From contig JAZDNF010000009.1 of NCBI GenBank assembly GCA_043800255.1, forward strand, positions 293,847 through 357,846: a stretch of DNA of 64,000 nucleotides, read 5' to 3'. The DNA is from Candidatus Altiarchaeota archaeon. GTDB lineage: Archaea; Altiarchaeota; Altiarchaeia; IMC4; SCGC-AAA252-I15. Positions 26,895 through 33,552 of this stretch are shown here, piece after piece (position 1 is the first letter of the stretch; the number at the start of each line of letters is the position of its first letter). A program made the position numbers and the translations under genes. Below the pieces are notes generated by a model that made no database searches, had not been told where the DNA came from, and saw only the letters and a list, made by a program, of their open reading frames with translations.

Positions 26895-27509
26895 TCATGC
26901 TATTTTACTTAGCGATTCCTCGACCAGCCTGCTGATGTCAAGAGCTTCTTCCATGGACTTTATGAAAGCGCTGTCGGCTTTCGTCGCAGGCTTATTTGGG
27001 ACAAGGCCGCAGCACAGGCCGGGCCGTATTGATATCTCATAGGTTCCAATCTCTTTCGCGACTTCTATGATGTCCTCCTTGTCGAATCCTATGAGAGGGC
27101 GTACGACGGGGATGGACACTGCCGCCTCTATGGCCTTCAGATTGCTCAGGGTCTGTGAGGCCACCTGTCCAAGCGACTCGCCGGTGAGTATGCCCTCCAG
27201 CCCTTTGTCCTTTGCTATCCTCTCGGCAAGCCTTAGCATCATCCTCTTGCACAGGACGCACTGGAACTTCCGGTTCTTCCTGAGGAAGGCCGAGTAGCTG
27301 GCACCGAATGGTATGACAAGCTTAAGTATGGTTCGCGAGGTCTTGCGTTCGAGCTGCCTTACGAGCTCGTGAAAGTTGTTCAGAGTGCGTGAGTCGGTGT
27401 ATGCGCTGTTGTCGAAGTGTATTGCAACAATATCATGGCCTTTCGCCAGCATCAGGTACGCTGCGACAGGCGAGTCAATCCCGCCCGAAATCAGAGCCGC
27501 GAGTTTCAT
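26895..27509 (-). CDS. ThiI-like PP-loop sulfurtransferase, catalytic domain only (no THUMP)
   Basis: SGGIDS, CVLC, TGESLGQVASQTL, PLIGFDKEDI, LCC; only 204 aa. Confidence 0.85.
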   Translation of the reverse strand: MKLAALISGGIDSPVAAYLMLAKGHDIVAIHFDNSAYTDSRTLNNFHELVRQLERKTSRTILKLVIPFGASYSAFLRKNRKFQCVLCKRMMLRLAERIAKDKGLEGILTGESLGQVASQTLSNLKAIEAAVSIPVVRPLIGFDKEDIIEVAKEIGTYEISIRPGLCCGLVPNKPATKADSAFIKSMEEALDISRLVEESLSKIA

Positions 27510-27682
27510 CCTCCGTAGGTTGCCTTGATGAACTCGACACAGTCTGCGGCGGAGATGGGCTCGTCTTTAGGGCACAAGGTCCCGTTCTTCACGGCAAGGT
27601 AGCTGCTCGAATCCACTTCAAGCTTGTCCATCAGCTCCTTGACCGTTTTGCAGTCCCTGTGCAAGCTGCAGTCTATCTCCAT
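27506..27682 (-). CDS. Ubiquitin-like sulfur carrier (ThiS/MoaD/SAMP-like)
   Basis: 58 aa from ATG 27682: TVKELMDKL...AVKNG...VEFIKATYGG* (C-terminal GG); 4 Cys. Confidence 0.85.
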   Translation of the reverse strand: MEIDCSLHRDCKTVKELMDKLEVDSSSYLAVKNGTLCPKDEPISAADCVEFIKATYGG

Positions 27683-27684
27683 CT

Positions 27685-28848
27685 TCAAGCAACCTCCATG
27701 CCGTTCTCCCTCGCAATCTCCTTGAACGACTCTGACAGGTGTTTTATCTGATCCCAGTTGAGACCGTATGTGTTCAGCTTCCACTCCATTGTGGCCCCAG
27801 GGAACGGCCCAAGGATTCCGCGGCCTTCAAGCGCGCTCGACAGGAAGTAGCCGCGCTTCCTGTGGCCTTCAGCCACCTTGTTGAAGCTGTCACTAGTGTC
27901 GACTTTCGTCAGGGTGTGCTTCCGCGGCATCTCGCTCAGGACCCTGCTGCCCTTCACCTTCAGGAACTCGTCCATGAAATAGTTCACCTTCTTGACTTCA
28001 TCATCCCAGTGTTTGACCCTCTCTTTGACCTTCGGGAAAGACGCTATCATCGAAATAAGAGGGGCGCCCATCACAGTGCAACCCAGGAGCTCCGTCTCCT
28101 TGATGCCGAACTTCCTCCCCGTTATGTCACCTTTCAACGAGGTTGTCCTGAAGACCTTCTGAGCATACTCTTCGGTTGTTGCCAGAACGCCTGACGGCGC
28201 AGCGGATGCCATCGACTTGTGCCCTGAGCCTACTATGAAGTCGGCGTTCAGTTTCTTCCCGTCAACCGGCATAGTGCCGACAGTGTATGCGCCGTTGTAC
28301 AGAAATGGGACGTCATGCTCATGGCATACTTTGCCGATTTCGGCGACAGGGTGCAGGTTACCGTACAGGTAGTCGACATGGTGTATCGCCACCAGCTTAG
28401 GCTTGAGTTCCTCTATTTTTCTCTCGACAGCGTCTGCTGTTATGATATGATTCTCGTCCAACGGCACTTCCTTCCAGACGGCGCCTGCGGACTCGATGGC
28501 AAGGCACAGCGAATAGTGGGCGAGGGAGCTGACCAGTGCAACATCCCCTTTATCGAGTAGGCTGTTCGCGACGATCTGGAACGCGTTTCTCGCGCCCCTC
28601 ACCACCCTGGCCTGGTCCATGTTCACGAACTTGGCAAGCTCCTCATAGAACGCCCCGATGGGCGGCTTCTGTATCTTGTCCAGCCTGAACGGCTTGAAGC
28701 AGAAGTCGCATGTCGAGTAGCCGTCGCCGTAGGATATGATGGCCTTCCTCGCCTCCAACGTAAGCCTCCCGGCTGCCTGTATGGGCTGGATGTTTATGTA
28801 ATCCTCCTCCCTGCTGCGTATCGGGAGGGCATCTGTTATGTTTGTCAT
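27685..28848 (-). CDS. pscS: Sep-tRNA:Cys-tRNA synthase (SepCysS)
   Basis: INIQPIQAAGRLT, DGYSTCDFC, GAR, AHYS, YNGAY, SGHKSMA (PLP Lys), ELLGCT. Confidence 0.93.
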   Translation of the reverse strand: MTNITDALPIRSREEDYINIQPIQAAGRLTLEARKAIISYGDGYSTCDFCFKPFRLDKIQKPPIGAFYEELAKFVNMDQARVVRGARNAFQIVANSLLDKGDVALVSSLAHYSLCLAIESAGAVWKEVPLDENHIITADAVERKIEELKPKLVAIHHVDYLYGNLHPVAEIGKVCHEHDVPFLYNGAYTVGTMPVDGKKLNADFIVGSGHKSMASAAPSGVLATTEEYAQKVFRTTSLKGDITGRKFGIKETELLGCTVMGAPLISMIASFPKVKERVKHWDDEVKKVNYFMDEFLKVKGSRVLSEMPRKHTLTKVDTSDSFNKVAEGHRKRGYFLSSALEGRGILGPFPGATMEWKLNTYGLNWDQIKHLSESFKEIARENGMEVA

Positions 28849-29018
28849 AATTTCGCCTCTAAGTTGTCCAGCGCCTTCCTCGCCTTCTTCAGAGCCTTCT
28901 CAAGGCGCGTCTTCTGCTCAACGTTGAGCTTATGCCCTGGCGCAGTCTCCCTCAGGAGTTCCCTGATGTCTTCCAGCGCGAACAGGCCGTTAAACAATGC
29001 TTCCGTTTCCTCGGTCAT
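28845..29018 (-). CDS. SepCysSn-like small helical partner (SepCysE N-terminal homolog); not in ORF track
   Basis: 57 aa MTEETEALFNGLFALEDIRELLRETAPGHKLNVEQKTRLEKALKKARKALDNLEAKL*; ATGA overlaps with both thiF and pscS. Confidence 0.8.
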   Translation of the reverse strand: MTEETEALFNGLFALEDIRELLRETAPGHKLNVEQKTRLEKALKKARKALDNLEAKL

Positions 29019-29794
29019 CTTGTTCCTCTAATATAATTTTTTTGACCTTTATTAATGTCATTTTGGGAGCATGCCCTGCATTCCGGATTCTTTCTCAGTT
29101 TTATCTCCCTGAACGTCATGCTGCCGCCGTCGTATACTAGGAGGCGGTCGTATAAGGGCTGTCCTAAACCTGTCAGGATTTTGATGACTTCCGTGGCCTG
29201 TATTGTTCCGACAACGCCTGGCGTGCTCCCCAGGACAGGGAACTTTTTAACAGGCGGCGCTGTAGGGTAAACGCACGCGAAGCAGGCGGTCTTGGGAGGG
29301 TTGAATACTGTCACTCTGCCCTCCAGGCCGGAAACGCTGCCGTGGACGAGGGGGATTCCGCTGTCCACTGAGACCTTGTTCAGGACATGCCGGGTGTCAA
29401 TGTTATCCAGGCAGTCCACGATCACATCAGAGTTAGCCACCAGCCGTCTGGCATTCATCTCATCGATCTTATTCATCACACCCTCTAAGCTCACATTCGA
29501 ATTCAGCTTAGAGAGCTTTTCGACGGCAGACTCGACCTTCATCCTGCCGACGTCATCCTCGTTGTGCAGAACCTGCCGGTTCAGGTTGCTCAGCTCGACT
29601 CTGTCCTTGTCCGCTATTATGAGCTTCCCGACGCCGGCAACTGTGAGGTATGTCAGGACAGGGCTGCCCAGGCCTCCGACGCCGGCCACGAAAACGGTAG
29701 AATTGCTGAGCCTTTTCTGACCTCGCTCTCCGAATCCGTCTATCATCAGCTGCCGGTCATACCTCTCAAATTCTTTTTTATCAGTCCTTCCCAT
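29015..29794 (-). CDS. ThiF/MoeB/UbaA E1-like adenylyltransferase
   Basis: RYDRQ, GVGGLG, DRVELSNLNRQ, DCLDN, CFAC, CRAC. Confidence 0.92.
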   Translation of the reverse strand: MGRTDKKEFERYDRQLMIDGFGERGQKRLSNSTVFVAGVGGLGSPVLTYLTVAGVGKLIIADKDRVELSNLNRQVLHNEDDVGRMKVESAVEKLSKLNSNVSLEGVMNKIDEMNARRLVANSDVIVDCLDNIDTRHVLNKVSVDSGIPLVHGSVSGLEGRVTVFNPPKTACFACVYPTAPPVKKFPVLGSTPGVVGTIQATEVIKILTGLGQPLYDRLLVYDGGSMTFREIKLRKNPECRACSQNDINKGQKNYIRGTR

Positions 29795-29873
29795 GGTTCT
29801 CGCCAAGTCTATCTTCAATATTATCTGGGAACGCGTTTAATAACTCGCAGACAGTTGCAACCAAATGTTGGAA

Positions 29874-31286
29874 TTAATCGTCAACTGCTTTGACTCTCTC
29901 AGCAAGCGTGGAACCATCCGGCTGGTCTGTAAGAGCCAAGCCGCCTCTCAGGAGCTCGTCTCTGATTCTGTCAGCCTCAGCCCACTTTTTGTTCAACCTC
30001 AAGAGCCGTCTCTTTTCGACCAGAGCGCTCTCCTCCTCCGTTAATTCTACAGCCTCAGAGGGCAGCGTGATGCCCAGGGCATTCAGAAGCCGGCCTAGGA
30101 TGTCCAACGCGCCTTTGATAGACTCGGCAGACTCGTTTCCGCCGTCTAGCAGAGGGTTTATGCGCTTTACAGCATCGAAGAGCGAGGCAACAGCCTGGGA
30201 CGTGTTGAAGTCGTTGTTCATGTGCCCTATGAAGTCAGACTCCGCCCCCTCCATCACATCAAGTGCAATATGATCTCCGGAGTCTGTGGACTTAGCTATG
30301 GCATCCCCCAGAGCCCGCCTGAAGTTGCCCAACCTTTTGAGCGCGCTCTCGGCTTTCGCCACGTTCTCGCTGCTGTAATCTATGGGGCTCCTGTAGTTTG
30401 TCTGGAGCACAAAAAGTCTCAGAGCGCTTGCACTGTGCCCTTTTAGGAAATCTCTCACGGATATTATGTTCCCAAGCGACTTGCTCATCTTCTCGCCTGT
30501 CGAGTTGAGGAAGCCGGTGTGAAGCCAGTATCTTACAAAAGGCTTTTTCCCGCTTAACGACTCGCTCTGCGCTATCTCGTTCTCATGGTGGGGGAATATC
30601 AGATCCAACGCTCCGCCGTGGATGTCAAACCTGTCCCCAAGATATTTTTGTGACATCACGGAGCATTCGATATGCCACCCAGGCCTGCCGCGACCCCAGA
30701 GACTGTCGAATCCCAGCTCATCTTCTGAGGATTCCTTCCACAGGGAGAAATCGAGCGGAGACCTCTTGCCAGAATCGTGTTCGACCCTGTGCCTGTCCAG
30801 CTCCTCCGTCTTCTGGTTCGAGAGTCTGCCATAGTCTGGAAAGGTTGAAACGTCAAAGTATACGCTGCCTCCAACAGAGTAGGCGTGCCCTGAGTCTATC
30901 AGCTTCCTGACCGCATCTATTATGTCAGGAATATGCTCCGAAACCTTCGGGTATACGTCTGGTTCAAGCAGTCCAAGGTTTTTCCTGTCCTCTGACGCCC
31001 TCTCAGAGAATTCCTTCGAAAGTTCGAGCGGCGGAACACCCCTCTCAAGAGCCCTGTTGATTATCTTGTCGTCAACGTCTGTTATGTTCTGGACGTACGT
31101 CACCCTGTAACCGAGGGACTTCAGGTGCCTGAGGATGACGTCGAATGCGATGTATGTTCTAGCGTGTCCGATGTGCATGTAATCGTAGACTGTCAGGCCG
31201 CAGACGTAGACGCTGACCTCGCCCTCCCTGAGCGGTCTGAACTCCTCAATCTGCCTTGACAGCGTGTTATAAACTCTCAATGCCAT
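29874..31286 (-). CDS. cysS: Cysteinyl-tRNA synthetase
   Basis: YVCGLTVYD..HIGH, GRPGWHIECS, DLIFPHHENE, KMSKS. Confidence 0.97.
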   Translation of the reverse strand: MALRVYNTLSRQIEEFRPLREGEVSVYVCGLTVYDYMHIGHARTYIAFDVILRHLKSLGYRVTYVQNITDVDDKIINRALERGVPPLELSKEFSERASEDRKNLGLLEPDVYPKVSEHIPDIIDAVRKLIDSGHAYSVGGSVYFDVSTFPDYGRLSNQKTEELDRHRVEHDSGKRSPLDFSLWKESSEDELGFDSLWGRGRPGWHIECSVMSQKYLGDRFDIHGGALDLIFPHHENEIAQSESLSGKKPFVRYWLHTGFLNSTGEKMSKSLGNIISVRDFLKGHSASALRLFVLQTNYRSPIDYSSENVAKAESALKRLGNFRRALGDAIAKSTDSGDHIALDVMEGAESDFIGHMNNDFNTSQAVASLFDAVKRINPLLDGGNESAESIKGALDILGRLLNALGITLPSEAVELTEEESALVEKRRLLRLNKKWAEADRIRDELLRGGLALTDQPDGSTLAERVKAVDD

Positions 31287-31403
31287 TGTTGTGCGTTCTG
31301 AGGGGCTGAAAGCCCCTCATTACTCGCGGTTTGATTAAACTCCCAATCGACCTCTGGTCGATGGGCGCAAGTTGCCGGAGGCAACTTCGCGTTCTTAAAG
31401 TTT

Positions 31404-31474
31404 AGCGGAGAGGGGGAATTGAACCCCCATACACGGGGTTGCAGCCCGCTACATAGCCACTCTGTCATCTCCGC
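31404..31474 (-). tRNA. tRNA-Cys(GCA), A37, U73, CCA not encoded
   Basis: GCGGAGA TG ACAGAGTGGCTATGT A GCGGG CT GCA AC CCCGT GTAT GGGGG TTCAATT CCCCC TCTCCGC T folds as a cloverleaf. Confidence 0.95.
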
Positions 31475-31526: not shown

Positions 31527-32111
31527 TCAGATGGTCCACTCTATCTCTTTCGCGCAAACCTCGCAGGGGTCTTTGAATCTGACGTATGCGCCTTCCATTA
31601 CCCTGAGCCTGCCTTTGGGGCAGACTACGGTTGAATTCTCAGGTATGTCGTCGACTATGACTGACAGGGCGCCTATTTTCGAGTTCTTTTTTATGGTGAC
31701 CGGCCCGAGTACTGCGGCTCCGACGCCTATGGTGACATTGTCCTCTAGGGTTGGGTGCCTCTTCTCTCCTTTTTTGTCTCTCCACCATCCGTGGCCGCCG
31801 AGGGTGACGCCCTGATAGAGCATCACATTGTCGCCGATTTCGGCTGTCTCGCCGATTACAACGCCGGTAGCGTGGTCTATGAAAAAGTTCTTACCTATTT
31901 TCGCGCCAGGATGTATTTCAGCCCCTGCGAGGAATCTCCCAAAGTAGGATATTGCCCGCGGTATTATCGGTATGCCCAGCGTGTGGAGGAAATGCGACAC
32001 CCTGTAAAGTATTATCGCCTGGACTCCAGGGTAGAATATAACCTCCAGGTAGTTTATGCCGCCCCTCAGCGCAGGATCCTTCCGGTATGCTGTCCTGAAC
32101 ACTTCAAACAC
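31527..32111 (-). CDS. cysE: Serine O-acetyltransferase
   Basis: [38 protein letters not shown]; GTG start overlapping the cysK end. Confidence 0.93.
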
Positions 32112-33033
32112 TTTGCTCCCTCTTTTCGTATAACTGTGTTGACAGGTATCTCTCGCCTGTGTCAGGTATAACAACAACGACGCGCTTGCCCTTGCCAAGC
32201 CTATTAGCGACTTGCAACGCGGCCCACGTGTTGGCTCCAGCTGATATGCCTGCGAGTATGCCCTCCTCCAAAGCCAGCCGCTCAGATGTCTTGAATGCAT
32301 CCTCGTTTGTCACCTGTATGGTCTCGTCTATGAGGCCGACATCGAGTATGTCTGGGATGAAGCCAGCTCCGATGCCCTGTATCTTATGGGGCCCCGGCTT
32401 CCCGCCGGAGATGACAGGAGATGCTGTCGGCTCGACGGCGATGAACTTCGCCTTCGGCAGTTTCTTTTTAAGTACTGACGCGACGCCGGTTATGGTCCCG
32501 CCTGTGCCCACGCCGACTACGAATGCGTCGAACGTCTTAACCTCCTTCAGCAGTTCCTGCGCCGTGGTCTCCATATGCGCCTTCACGTTCGCCCTGTTCT
32601 TGAATTGCTGGGGTATGAAAACGTGCGAGTCTTCCTTGGCAAGCTCCTCCGCCTTCTCTACGGCGCCTTTCATCCCCTTAGCGCCTTCCGTCAGGACCAG
32701 CTCGGCTCCGAACGCTTTCAGTATTTTCCTCCGCTCCAGGCTCATTGTCTCGGGCATGGTGAGTTTCAGCTTGTAGCCTTTGACCGCGCTGACCATGGCC
32801 AGGCCTATGCCGGTGTTACCAGATGTCGGTTCGACTATGATGCTGTCCTTGCCTATTATGCCCTCCTTCTCAGCCTCTTCTATCATGTACAGCGCTATCC
32901 TGTCCTTTACGGACGAACCTGGGTTGAAGAACTCCAGCTTTGCTATGACTTCCGCGTCATCCGGGCCCGTAAGTTTGTTCAGCCTTACGTGTGGCGTCCC
33001 GCCTATCGTTTCCAAAATGTTTTTGTGTATCAT
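32104..33033 (-). CDS. cysK: Cysteine synthase A
   Basis: [45 protein letters not shown]; GAGGTGA RBS at 33038-33044. Confidence 0.96.
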
Positions 33034-33063
33034 GTTATCACCTCGATCGTGTTTGAGTAAATG

Positions 33064-33078
33064 AAAAAAAACAAAAAA
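33064..33078 (-). terminator. U-tract (U6-G-U8), putative archaeal terminator/attenuator in the cysK leader
   Basis: Plus strand aaaaaaaacaaaaaa between the leader-peptide stop and the cysK RBS. Confidence 0.6.
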
Positions 33079-33119
33079 GATTGTACAAGTCCGGTTATAG
33101 AGTAGTCTGTGCGAGGCCT

Positions 33120-33197
33120 TCAGAGCCTACACTGACAGCAACAGCAGCAGAATCCAGTCGGAGTTCCCCTCCCCTGATGCACTTTCTGCGGGTTCAT
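33120..33197 (-). CDS. Poly-cysteine leader peptide (25 aa) upstream of cysK; not in ORF track
   Basis: [25 protein letters not shown]; Cys codons TGC TGC TGT TGC TGT (CAG) TGT. Confidence 0.8.
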
Positions 33198-33208
33198 TTT
33201 TTAACAGC

Positions 33209-33238
33209 TGTTAGTATTGTAACAAACGCATATAAATA
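33209..33238. promoter_or_regulatory. Bidirectional TATA box plus palindromic operator between the cys leader and a divergent regulator
   Basis: catataaata at 33229-33238 (TTTATATG on minus, TATAAATA on plus, about 24 nt before ATG 33262); TGTTA-N6-TAACA at 33209-33224. Confidence 0.6.
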
Positions 33239-33261
33239 CTTAACTATTGTTAATATTACAC

Positions 33262-33552
33262 ATGAAACTTCCGTGCGAGTATGCGATATGGTACGTTCTC
33301 CCGGATATAAGGGCCGAGATAGCGAGGGAGCTCATTGCACTGGGCCTGGACCAGAAGGAGGCGGCACAGAGACTCGGGGTGACTCCGGCAGCAGTGTCAC
33401 AATACATTCACAAGAAGAGAGGGGGCAAGAGCAGGCTGCCGAAGACCGCGAAGGGCAAGATAAAGAAGGCTGCCAAGAGGATAAAGGACAGCAGAAAGGA
33501 GAGGGACATCCTAAAGGTCATATGCGAAACCTGCATGAGCATACGAACATAA
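33262..33552 (+). CDS. Archaeal HTH transcriptional regulator with Cys motifs
   Basis: PCE..VLPDIRAEIAREL, QKEAAQRLGVTPAAVSQY..KRG, C-terminal CETC; probably leaderless. Confidence 0.85.
   Translation: MKLPCEYAIWYVLPDIRAEIARELIALGLDQKEAAQRLGVTPAAVSQYIHKKRGGKSRLPKTAKGKIKKAAKRIKDSRKERDILKVICETCMSIRT

Follow-up and report, generated by a model that had tools for sequence, protein, structure and literature searches.

A cysteine-codon leader with a stop-enclosing hairpin upstream of cysK in Altiarchaeia, and a leucine-codon counterpart upstream of leuA

In the genome of a Candidatus Altiarchaeota archaeon, the gene cysK (O-acetylserine sulfhydrylase family) is preceded by a short upstream open reading frame (uORF) that is rich in cysteine codons near its end and whose stop codon is enclosed in a hairpin, here termed P1. 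The region was analyzed within a stretch of 64,000 nucleotides (nt), hereafter the window (assembly GCA_043800255.1, contig JAZDNF010000009.1, forward-strand positions 293,847 to 357,846), of a 1.75-Mb genome (17 contigs, 93% complete), and relatives were counted within the 61 species-representative genomes of the class comprising it. Sequence comparison established a conserved anatomy of the leader, an enrichment of Cys codons specific to the uORF frame, covariation within the hairpin, and a parallel leucine leader upstream of leuA. On these grounds, an amino-acid-specific leader that is read by the ribosome is well supported, and as the best overall explanation we favor, with some reservation, a ribosome-read Cys leader through which the transcript would be lost before cysK when Cys-tRNA is plentiful.

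The elements of the leader, from the promoter to the gene it precedes, are as follows.

33229..33236, minus strand: TATA-like octamer of the leader promoter, read directly from the sequence; the start site downstream of it is predicted
33120..33197, minus strand: uORF of 25 codons plus a TGA stop, with a predicted 5' untranslated region (UTR) of only ~6-10 nt
33129..33149, minus strand: Cys codons of residues 17-21 and 23 (three TGC, three TGT), making six in the last nine codons
33105..33136, minus strand: hairpin P1, enclosing the uORF stop (33120-33122) in its loop; 29-nt core of -11.1 kcal/mol
33089..33092, minus strand: conserved GGAC motif, 27 nt past the uORF stop
33064..33078, minus strand: T6-G-T8 tract, a candidate archaeal terminator, read from the sequence
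33038..33044, minus strand: Shine-Dalgarno (SD) sequence of cysK, GAGGTGA, its GGTG nearly invariant across leaders
32104..33033, minus strand: cysK (PALP domain, E 5e-74), 72-86% identical in relatives

An earlier note, made from the DNA alone, had described the TATA box, the uORF and its peptide, the hairpin, the T6-G-T8 tract and the SD, and all of them are present on the minus strand at these positions.

The Cys leader is conserved among related archaea

A cysK gene (E 1e-80 or better) was found in 16 of the 61 genomes, and 18 cysK upstream regions were taken from relatives, with L015 left out because its 5' end is missing. All but two of these regions (L014 and L016) share one layout, in the order TATA box, palindrome (TTAAC-N4-GTTAA), ATG and uORF, stop-enclosing hairpin, usually GGAC, usually a T run, an A-rich stretch, SD and cysK; in L020, which is among these 16, the downstream gene is a paralogue of 42% identity. 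When the genomes were scanned with a pattern of palindrome, ATG and TGT-type word, 14 sites were detected in 12 of 61 genomes, against 0 for the reversed control, which gained one genome (L028/L089) and a second, partial leader copy in G008. A metagenome scan added 8 leaders, recognized among 80 of the 105 matching stretches. The final set comprised 25 leaders (17 genome-derived and 8 from metagenome contigs), 24 of which have a complete spacer between uORF and cysK; as these sequences are kin, the counts given here overstate their independence. A pattern scan of species-representative genome records gave 67 stretches and returned these leaders again, 13 of the stretches having a Cys-ending uORF and hairpin; the other 54 look like chance. 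Those 13 all lie in archaeal metagenome-assembled genomes, several of them labeled Altiarchaeota, Altiarchaeia or Altiarchaeales and the remainder carrying broader archaeal labels. All 25 leaders are assigned to Altiarchaeia-type archaea.

The uORF also keeps a nearly constant position relative to its promoter: TATA box and ATG are 37-41 nt apart in all but one of 17 leaders, the exception having 45 nt. Archaeal TATA boxes are centered near -26, and together with this spacing a 5' UTR of the length listed above is predicted for the uORF, upstream of which no SD was found.

Cys codons are enriched in the uORF frame

Every one of the 25 leaders contains an in-frame, Cys-containing uORF, and the stop codon always falls inside P1 (TAA 11, TGA 7, TAG 7). 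The uORFs fall into seven length classes of 18-25 codons and the N-terminal two thirds of their peptides cannot be aligned among leaders, which points to many separate changes that all kept the frame. In the 17 genome-derived leaders, TGY codons occur 56 times in frame versus 7 and 5 times in the other two frames, which are open over the uORF span in only 6/17 and 2/17 leaders, and Cys makes up 14.8% of uORF residues versus 1.3% in a proxy proteome. Counting back from the stop, codons -3, -5 and -8 encode Cys in 16, 11 and 10 of these 17 leaders, respectively, and the number of Cys codons per uORF ranges from 1 to 6 across the full set. In the window, five Cys codons are consecutive and the last one, TGT (33129-33131), forms the foot of P1. 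Both synonymous codons are used here, from which the earlier note had argued for amino-acid selection rather than triplet slippage; across the 25 leaders, Cys codons other than -3 comprise 23 TGC and 34 TGT. Codon -2 encodes Arg in 21 of 25 leaders (AGG 17, CGG 3, AGA 1).

Frameshifting at hungry codons into a longer frame was considered and rejected: stops in the +1 frame are scattered 10-142 nt past the uORF stop, while a -1 shift mostly runs into a stop within the uORF.

A covarying hairpin encloses the uORF stop codon

Hairpin P1 was tested using per-sequence folds with a shuffle control. It folds with its 5' arm on codons -3/-2 in 25/25 leaders, compared to 12.5 +/- 2.1 leaders (maximum 17 in 200 trials) after shuffling of the 3' 16 nt. 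The arms covary at several positions: offset 6 is C-G in 13 leaders and G-C in 10, offset 5 is G-C in 21, C-G in 2, and U-A and A-U in one each, and offset 3 is A-U in 16, C-G in 2 and U-A in one. RNAalifold returned no pairs on MAFFT alignments of the Cys leaders because their variable loops misalign the 3' arms. Starting from two seed sequences, a covariance model recovered only ~9 leaders, plus matches in coding regions and on the antisense strand. With Rfam, only tRNA reached the gathering score in the window, and an E-value search of both leader loci (Cys and Leu) gave two irrelevant weak matches and no leader model.

The spacer between uORF and cysK contains only 6.8% G, with more C than G. 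The motif GGA[CT] occurs there in 22 of 25 leaders, and in 18 of these its distance from the preceding stop is 21-29 nt. The uORF and 5' UTR were searched for a sequence that could pair with GGAC, and none was conserved (mean z score -0.21, 22 leaders). By the spacing of the bacterial expressome, a polymerase touched by a ribosome at the uORF stop would stand at about GGAC, and by this analogy one might speculate that the motif is a polymerase pause site.

A leucine leader of shared design precedes leuA

The whole genome was filtered for the same architecture, that is, a TATA box 22-50 nt before the ATG of a short open reading frame (ORF) of 10-45 codons, a stop-spanning hairpin, and an SD-led ORF within 30-170 nt. 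Ranked by single-residue enrichment, the Cys uORF and a poly-Leu uORF were the top two of 24 hits. In a search for further cognate-codon leaders in this genome, the looser list was noisy, with four Pfam-checked candidates unrelated to the enriched residue, and filtering left only Leu and Cys.

L107:193-288: poly-Leu uORF, on the same contig 264 kb away and outside the window (region L107:140-360 = G000:C7:29239-29459)

The 31 codons of this uORF terminate in L-R-L-R-E-stop; Leu accounts for 8 of the final 12 residues, and its run draws on four different codons. The stop and the three sense codons before it fall in the 5' half of a hairpin of -17 kcal/mol, and the gene downstream is leuA, as identified by HMGL-like and LeuA_dimer domains. 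Of the 61 genomes, 59 have a leuA gene. Poly-Leu uORFs ending Arg-x-stop were found at 9 of the 30 best-matching leuA loci and in 10 of 20 further upstream stretches (one of them only 87 nt long), giving 19/50. These 19 Leu leaders all belong to families f1-f4, and none was found in the examined regions of f5, f7, f8 and f9. RNAalifold on 16 of the 19 placed the stop codon itself within a paired hairpin in which 6 of 10 pairs show compensatory change. Taken together, cognate-codon leaders for both Cys and Leu, each with Arg at -2 and a stop-enclosing hairpin, are hard to explain except as a signal read by the ribosome.

Several further observations were made on the Leu leaders. Arg before the last sense codon occurs in nearly all of them (18 of the 19 Leu leaders taken in), encoded by CGA or CGG. 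That Cys and Leu leaders share this residue while its codons differ suggests that the nascent peptide may act at termination. The Leu leader peptide keeps an N-terminal motif (T-V ... E-D ... S-G-N-P). A search for a second, coupled uORF showed that the 3' arm commonly contains an AUG, but the frames that open there span 1-11 codons and show no conservation. By identity, the leuA of this genome is closer to those of family f5 (72-81%) than to those of f1 (~56-64%), the family to which it belongs, although its leader is of the kind found in f1-f4 and not in f5; paralogy and transfer are candidate explanations.

Proposed mechanism and its output

From this anatomy we infer translation of the uORF, the transcription start site, ribosome arrest and the entire output step, as follows. 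Transcription would start a few bases upstream of the uORF AUG, from a promoter that also appears to be flanked by two operators for a divergent helix-turn-helix (HTH) regulator (described below), and a ribosome would translate the uORF. Under a shortage of Cys-tRNA(Cys), arrest would occur on the Cys codons, which lie in and just upstream of the P1 5' arm, and the stalled ribosome would hold P1 open; transcription would then proceed into cysK-cysE-tRNACys-cysS, by which Cys-tRNA would be restored. When Cys-tRNA is plentiful, the ribosome would reach the stop in the P1 loop and be released, and P1 would close. In this closed or unoccupied state the transcript would be lost ahead of cysK, most likely because the polymerase terminates at the U-tract of the G-poor spacer, intrinsically or with the help of FttA/aCPSF1. 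These parts are not equally secure. Leader-peptide sensing, with whatever output, is in our judgment likely; premature termination at the U-tract as that output falls somewhat short of an even chance. A little more tentative still is the proposal that a lineage within Altiarchaeia possesses a family of leader-peptide attenuators (at least Cys/cysK and Leu/leuA) in which arrest on cognate codons at the foot of the stop-enclosing hairpin decides termination in the G-poor, U-rich spacer, intrinsic or FttA/aCPSF1-dependent, without a bacterial hairpin pair.

The termination step is consistent with what is described of archaeal transcription. According to one report, archaeal polymerases terminate at oligo-T without need for a hairpin (PMC13675443), and U-rich RNA is given as the recognition element of FttA/aCPSF1 in another (PMC11616081). 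A 638-amino acid Beta-CASP ORF in this genome is a candidate FttA/aCPSF1. The earlier note had pointed to homologous leaders as a place to look, and these display Cys-rich uORFs, synonymous variation and, in 19 of 24 complete spacers, T runs of at least five, compared to 29.5% of 100-nt upstream regions in this genome (binomial P 7e-7, with kin not independent). Runs of at least six are found in 13/24 spacers versus 12.9% of such regions, and runs of at least eight in only 1.6% of the regions. Terminators of the bacterial hairpin-plus-T type were no more frequent than expected (20 found versus 18.1 in 20 kb).

A number of results weigh against this scheme. For the sensor, a single Cys codon is present in 5 of 25 leaders, at -3 only, and codon -3 is TGT in 24/25 leaders and never TGC, so that it may be retained for the stem and not for Cys. 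For the output, P1 lies 20-50 nt from the T run, which is too distant for a bacterial-type terminator hairpin, and a search among the leaders for a second conserved helix or an antiterminator/terminator pair found P1 only. A T run of at least five is missing from 5/24 Cys leaders and from most Leu leaders. In 11 of 13 leaders the final T run stops 27-39 nt short of the cysK ATG, which would also fit an internal promoter, and four to five leaders, including L006, L008, L089 and L021, have a T-rich tract that agrees with the TATA consensus of the lineage's own leader promoters. In addition, simple coupling models predict the wrong sign for suppression of termination by an arrested ribosome. For the Cys attenuator that the earlier note had proposed, the outcome is divided: sensing through a leader peptide gains from the conserved uORFs and the Leu parallel, and the termination output is unsupported, no alternative fold having been found among the leaders, T runs being missing from some of them and the T-rich tract resembling a TATA box in others.

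Alternative explanations

The rival that survives best, although we regard it as unlikely, retains the same sensor and changes its output: an arrested ribosome would shield the mRNA from 5'-to-3' decay or alter translation of cysK, and the T run would be non-regulatory. Stalled ribosomes on erm leaders in Bacillus protect mRNA from 5'-to-3' decay, and a second Beta-CASP ORF of this genome, at 423 amino acids, is of RNase J/aCPSF2-like size. All of the leader-peptide evidence fits this output equally well, and the gaps in T-run occurrence among Cys and Leu leaders, which indicate that the T run is not essential to the shared design, count in its favor. Sequestration of the SD by the Cys-codon tract was rejected as unsupported, however (mean z +0.31 over 24 leaders), the SD being as accessible as in shuffled sequences (0.36 versus 0.35). 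For the 3' arm of P1, the SD is the best-pairing site in 23 of 24 leaders, yet this pairing is no better than that of shuffled arms (z +0.36), because the SD is the sole G-rich spot around the G-poor spacer. Stabilization of the mRNA, in turn, leaves the stop-enclosing hairpin, the GGAC motif and the T-run enrichment unexplained.

A second rival, which we consider improbable, takes the uORF unit for a small gene in its own right, its product being a small RNA or a Cys-rich micropeptide and its end the T run, with cysK transcribed from an internal promoter in which the T-rich tract serves as TATA box. This agrees with the TATA-like tracts and the distance of the last T run to the cysK ATG noted above, as well as with the general frequency of T runs of at least five in upstream regions and a recurrent CxC spacing in the uORF peptides. 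Yet most T runs are followed by C or G and not by the ATA of a TATA box, and the nearly invariant SD of cysK requires a transcript that starts further upstream. A micropeptide is difficult to reconcile with N-terminal two thirds that are conserved neither in sequence nor in length and with a Cys count that varies as it does. In the uORF-less regions L014 and L016, the same operator and TATA box stand directly before cysK. Nor would a separate gene account for the match of codon to pathway at both leuA (Leu) and cysK (Cys).

Less probable again is that P1 and GGAC constitute an RNA element bound by a protein or ligand, the open frame being incidental. The TGT at -3 without synonymous change, the set distance of GGAC from the stop, and the five leaders with -3 as sole Cys codon would all suit such an element. 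What it leaves unaccounted for is a frame maintained in all seven length classes, the regular spacing of TATA box and AUG, and a frame-specific Cys enrichment upstream of P1, where nucleotides are otherwise free; the lack of an Rfam match and the Leu analogue argue against it as well. A chance ORF in AT-rich intergenic DNA, where short ORFs and T runs are frequent, can be dismissed in view of 25 conserved instances and a reversed pattern that gave 0 hits in 61 genomes.

Relation to known leader systems

The leader read by the ribosome, as favored here, resembles the bacterial trp, his, leu, thr and phe attenuators in having a short leader ORF with cognate codons near its 3' end followed by 2-3 codons, a U run before the first structural gene, an attenuator combined with repressor and operator, and parallel leaders for individual amino acids. 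The first (1:2) hairpin of the trp leader has the stop codon at its apex, similar to the placement in P1. The differences are equally clear: the Altiarchaeia leaders have an archaeal TATA-type promoter and a predicted near-leaderless initiation without an SD, a single conserved hairpin that is neither joined by a terminator hairpin nor by an antiterminator, a U run 20-50 nt away from that hairpin, and a G-poor spacer (6.8% G) with a conserved GGAC, and they match no leader model in Rfam. The sensing logic is thus bacterial-like, while the machinery and anatomy are not.

Another parallel is found in mycobacteria, where leaderless polycysteine short ORFs at the 5' ends of cysteine-metabolism transcripts are proposed to sense Cys-tRNA via ribosome pausing, and where the Cys codons base-pair with the SD region to exert translational control (Canestrari et al., bioRxiv 10.1101/834739). 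The two systems share a Cys-codon-rich short ORF, near a predicted 5' end in the leaders studied here, with cysteine genes downstream. The two or more consecutive Cys codons of the mycobacterial type are also seen in the window, which has five in a row. They differ in that complementarity between Cys tract and SD is no better than chance in the leaders studied here, which belong to Archaea, have a stop-enclosing hairpin and usually a T run, and in some cases contain a single Cys codon.

Leader attenuators that depend on Rho are known with tnaC or mgtL. A likeness to these and to archaeal FttA/aCPSF1 termination (PMC11616081) lies in an unstructured spacer with more C than G that follows a short ORF and leads to a U-rich element, and for FttA/aCPSF1 systems also in the candidate factor encoded in this genome. 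A regulated FttA terminator in a 5' leader was not found in the full-text literature searched. The earlier note knew of no described archaeal leader-peptide attenuator, and this agrees with the same literature, in which none was found, subscription journals lying largely outside it.

To our knowledge, regulation in Archaea beyond promoter recruitment is barely documented. Here, two amino-acid operons of one lineage carry cognate-codon leaders of shared design. If the favored explanation is true, ribosome-mediated transcription attenuation would exist in Archaea without the terminator/antiterminator hairpin pair of bacteria. It would make testable whether archaeal translation-transcription coupling is used for regulation, how archaeal RNA polymerase or FttA reads the position of a ribosome, and whether attenuation originated independently in both prokaryotic domains.

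Promoter, operators and divergent regulator

The palindrome seen in the shared layout is present in two copies that flank the TATA box in the window, next to a divergent regulator gene.

33240..33253, no strand: operator-like palindrome O1, an exact TTAAC-N4-GTTAA that precedes the TATA box; the 1.75-Mb genome has just 3 exact sites, this one included
33201..33214, no strand: operator-like palindrome O2, with one mismatch, over the predicted transcription start
33262..33552, plus strand: divergent gene for a small HTH regulator of 96 amino acids (Pfam HTH_3, E 3.5e-6)

O1 occupies the same place in relatives, and O2 is an exact palindrome in 13 of 16 uORF-bearing leaders. The uORF ATG follows the palindrome by 1-8 nt in relatives, except for L017 (38 nt) and L010, in which the palindrome is absent. 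Palindrome and TATA box are also kept where the uORF is absent (L014 and L016), directly before cysK, and the uORF module therefore looks inserted between promoter and gene. The regulator gene is divergent from the cysK leader in several relatives as well, and Cys5 and a C-terminal CxxC (C88, C91) are invariant across 8 orthologues, features that would suit what is probably a sulfur- or cysteine-responsive repressor. Palindromes bracketing the TATA box and predicted start, together with this regulator, suggest dual control that resembles the repressor-plus-attenuator arrangement of trp.

The palindrome was also observed elsewhere. The third exact site of the genome, L023:1501-1514 (G000:C7:279168-279181), lies between a gene for an FTR1-like (iron) permease and a gene for a 160-amino acid membrane/HTH protein, which is followed by an ORF with a heavy-metal-associated domain; this site may be chance or an additional target of the regulator. 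In the relative G024, a further exact operator palindrome (L092:2789) lies between cysE and tRNA-Cys, so that tRNA and cysS may own a regulated promoter there, and in the relative L091 an operator is also found ahead of metY.

The gene train downstream of cysK

The genes that follow cysK concern the same amino acid.

31527..32150, minus strand: cysE-like serine acetyltransferase (Hexapep domain; 74-82% identity to relatives by tblastn), start position approximate
31404..31474, minus strand: tRNA-Cys (GCA) within the gene train, detected by ARAGORN and Rfam
29874..31286, minus strand: cysS, cysteinyl-tRNA synthetase (tRNA-synt_1e domain, E 3e-122)

The cysE-like ORF overlaps the 3' end of cysK, and in the interval from cysE to tRNA-Cys neither an AT-rich, promoter-like stretch nor a T run was found. 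The order cysE, tRNA-Cys, cysS is seen here and at 4 of the 6 loci from relatives. The earlier note had seen a feedback loop in the presence of tRNA-Cys and its synthetase downstream, which holds as a matter of layout, since both genes lie downstream of cysK and cysE in these loci. An operon encoding the tRNA and synthetase that its own sensor reads would close the feedback unusually tightly.

The 117-nt interval that separates tRNA-Cys from cysS (31287-31403, minus strand) contains three stable-looking inverted repeats, no T run and no recognizable SD ahead of the cysS ATG. Expression of cysS may come from the RNA that remains once tRNA-Cys is excised. Directly 3' of cysS (26895-29818, minus strand) are genes of the ThiF family, for a SepCysS/SepSecS-like aminotransferase, and of the ThiS and ThiI families, and the train therefore unites both Cys-tRNA routes with sulfur-carrier genes.

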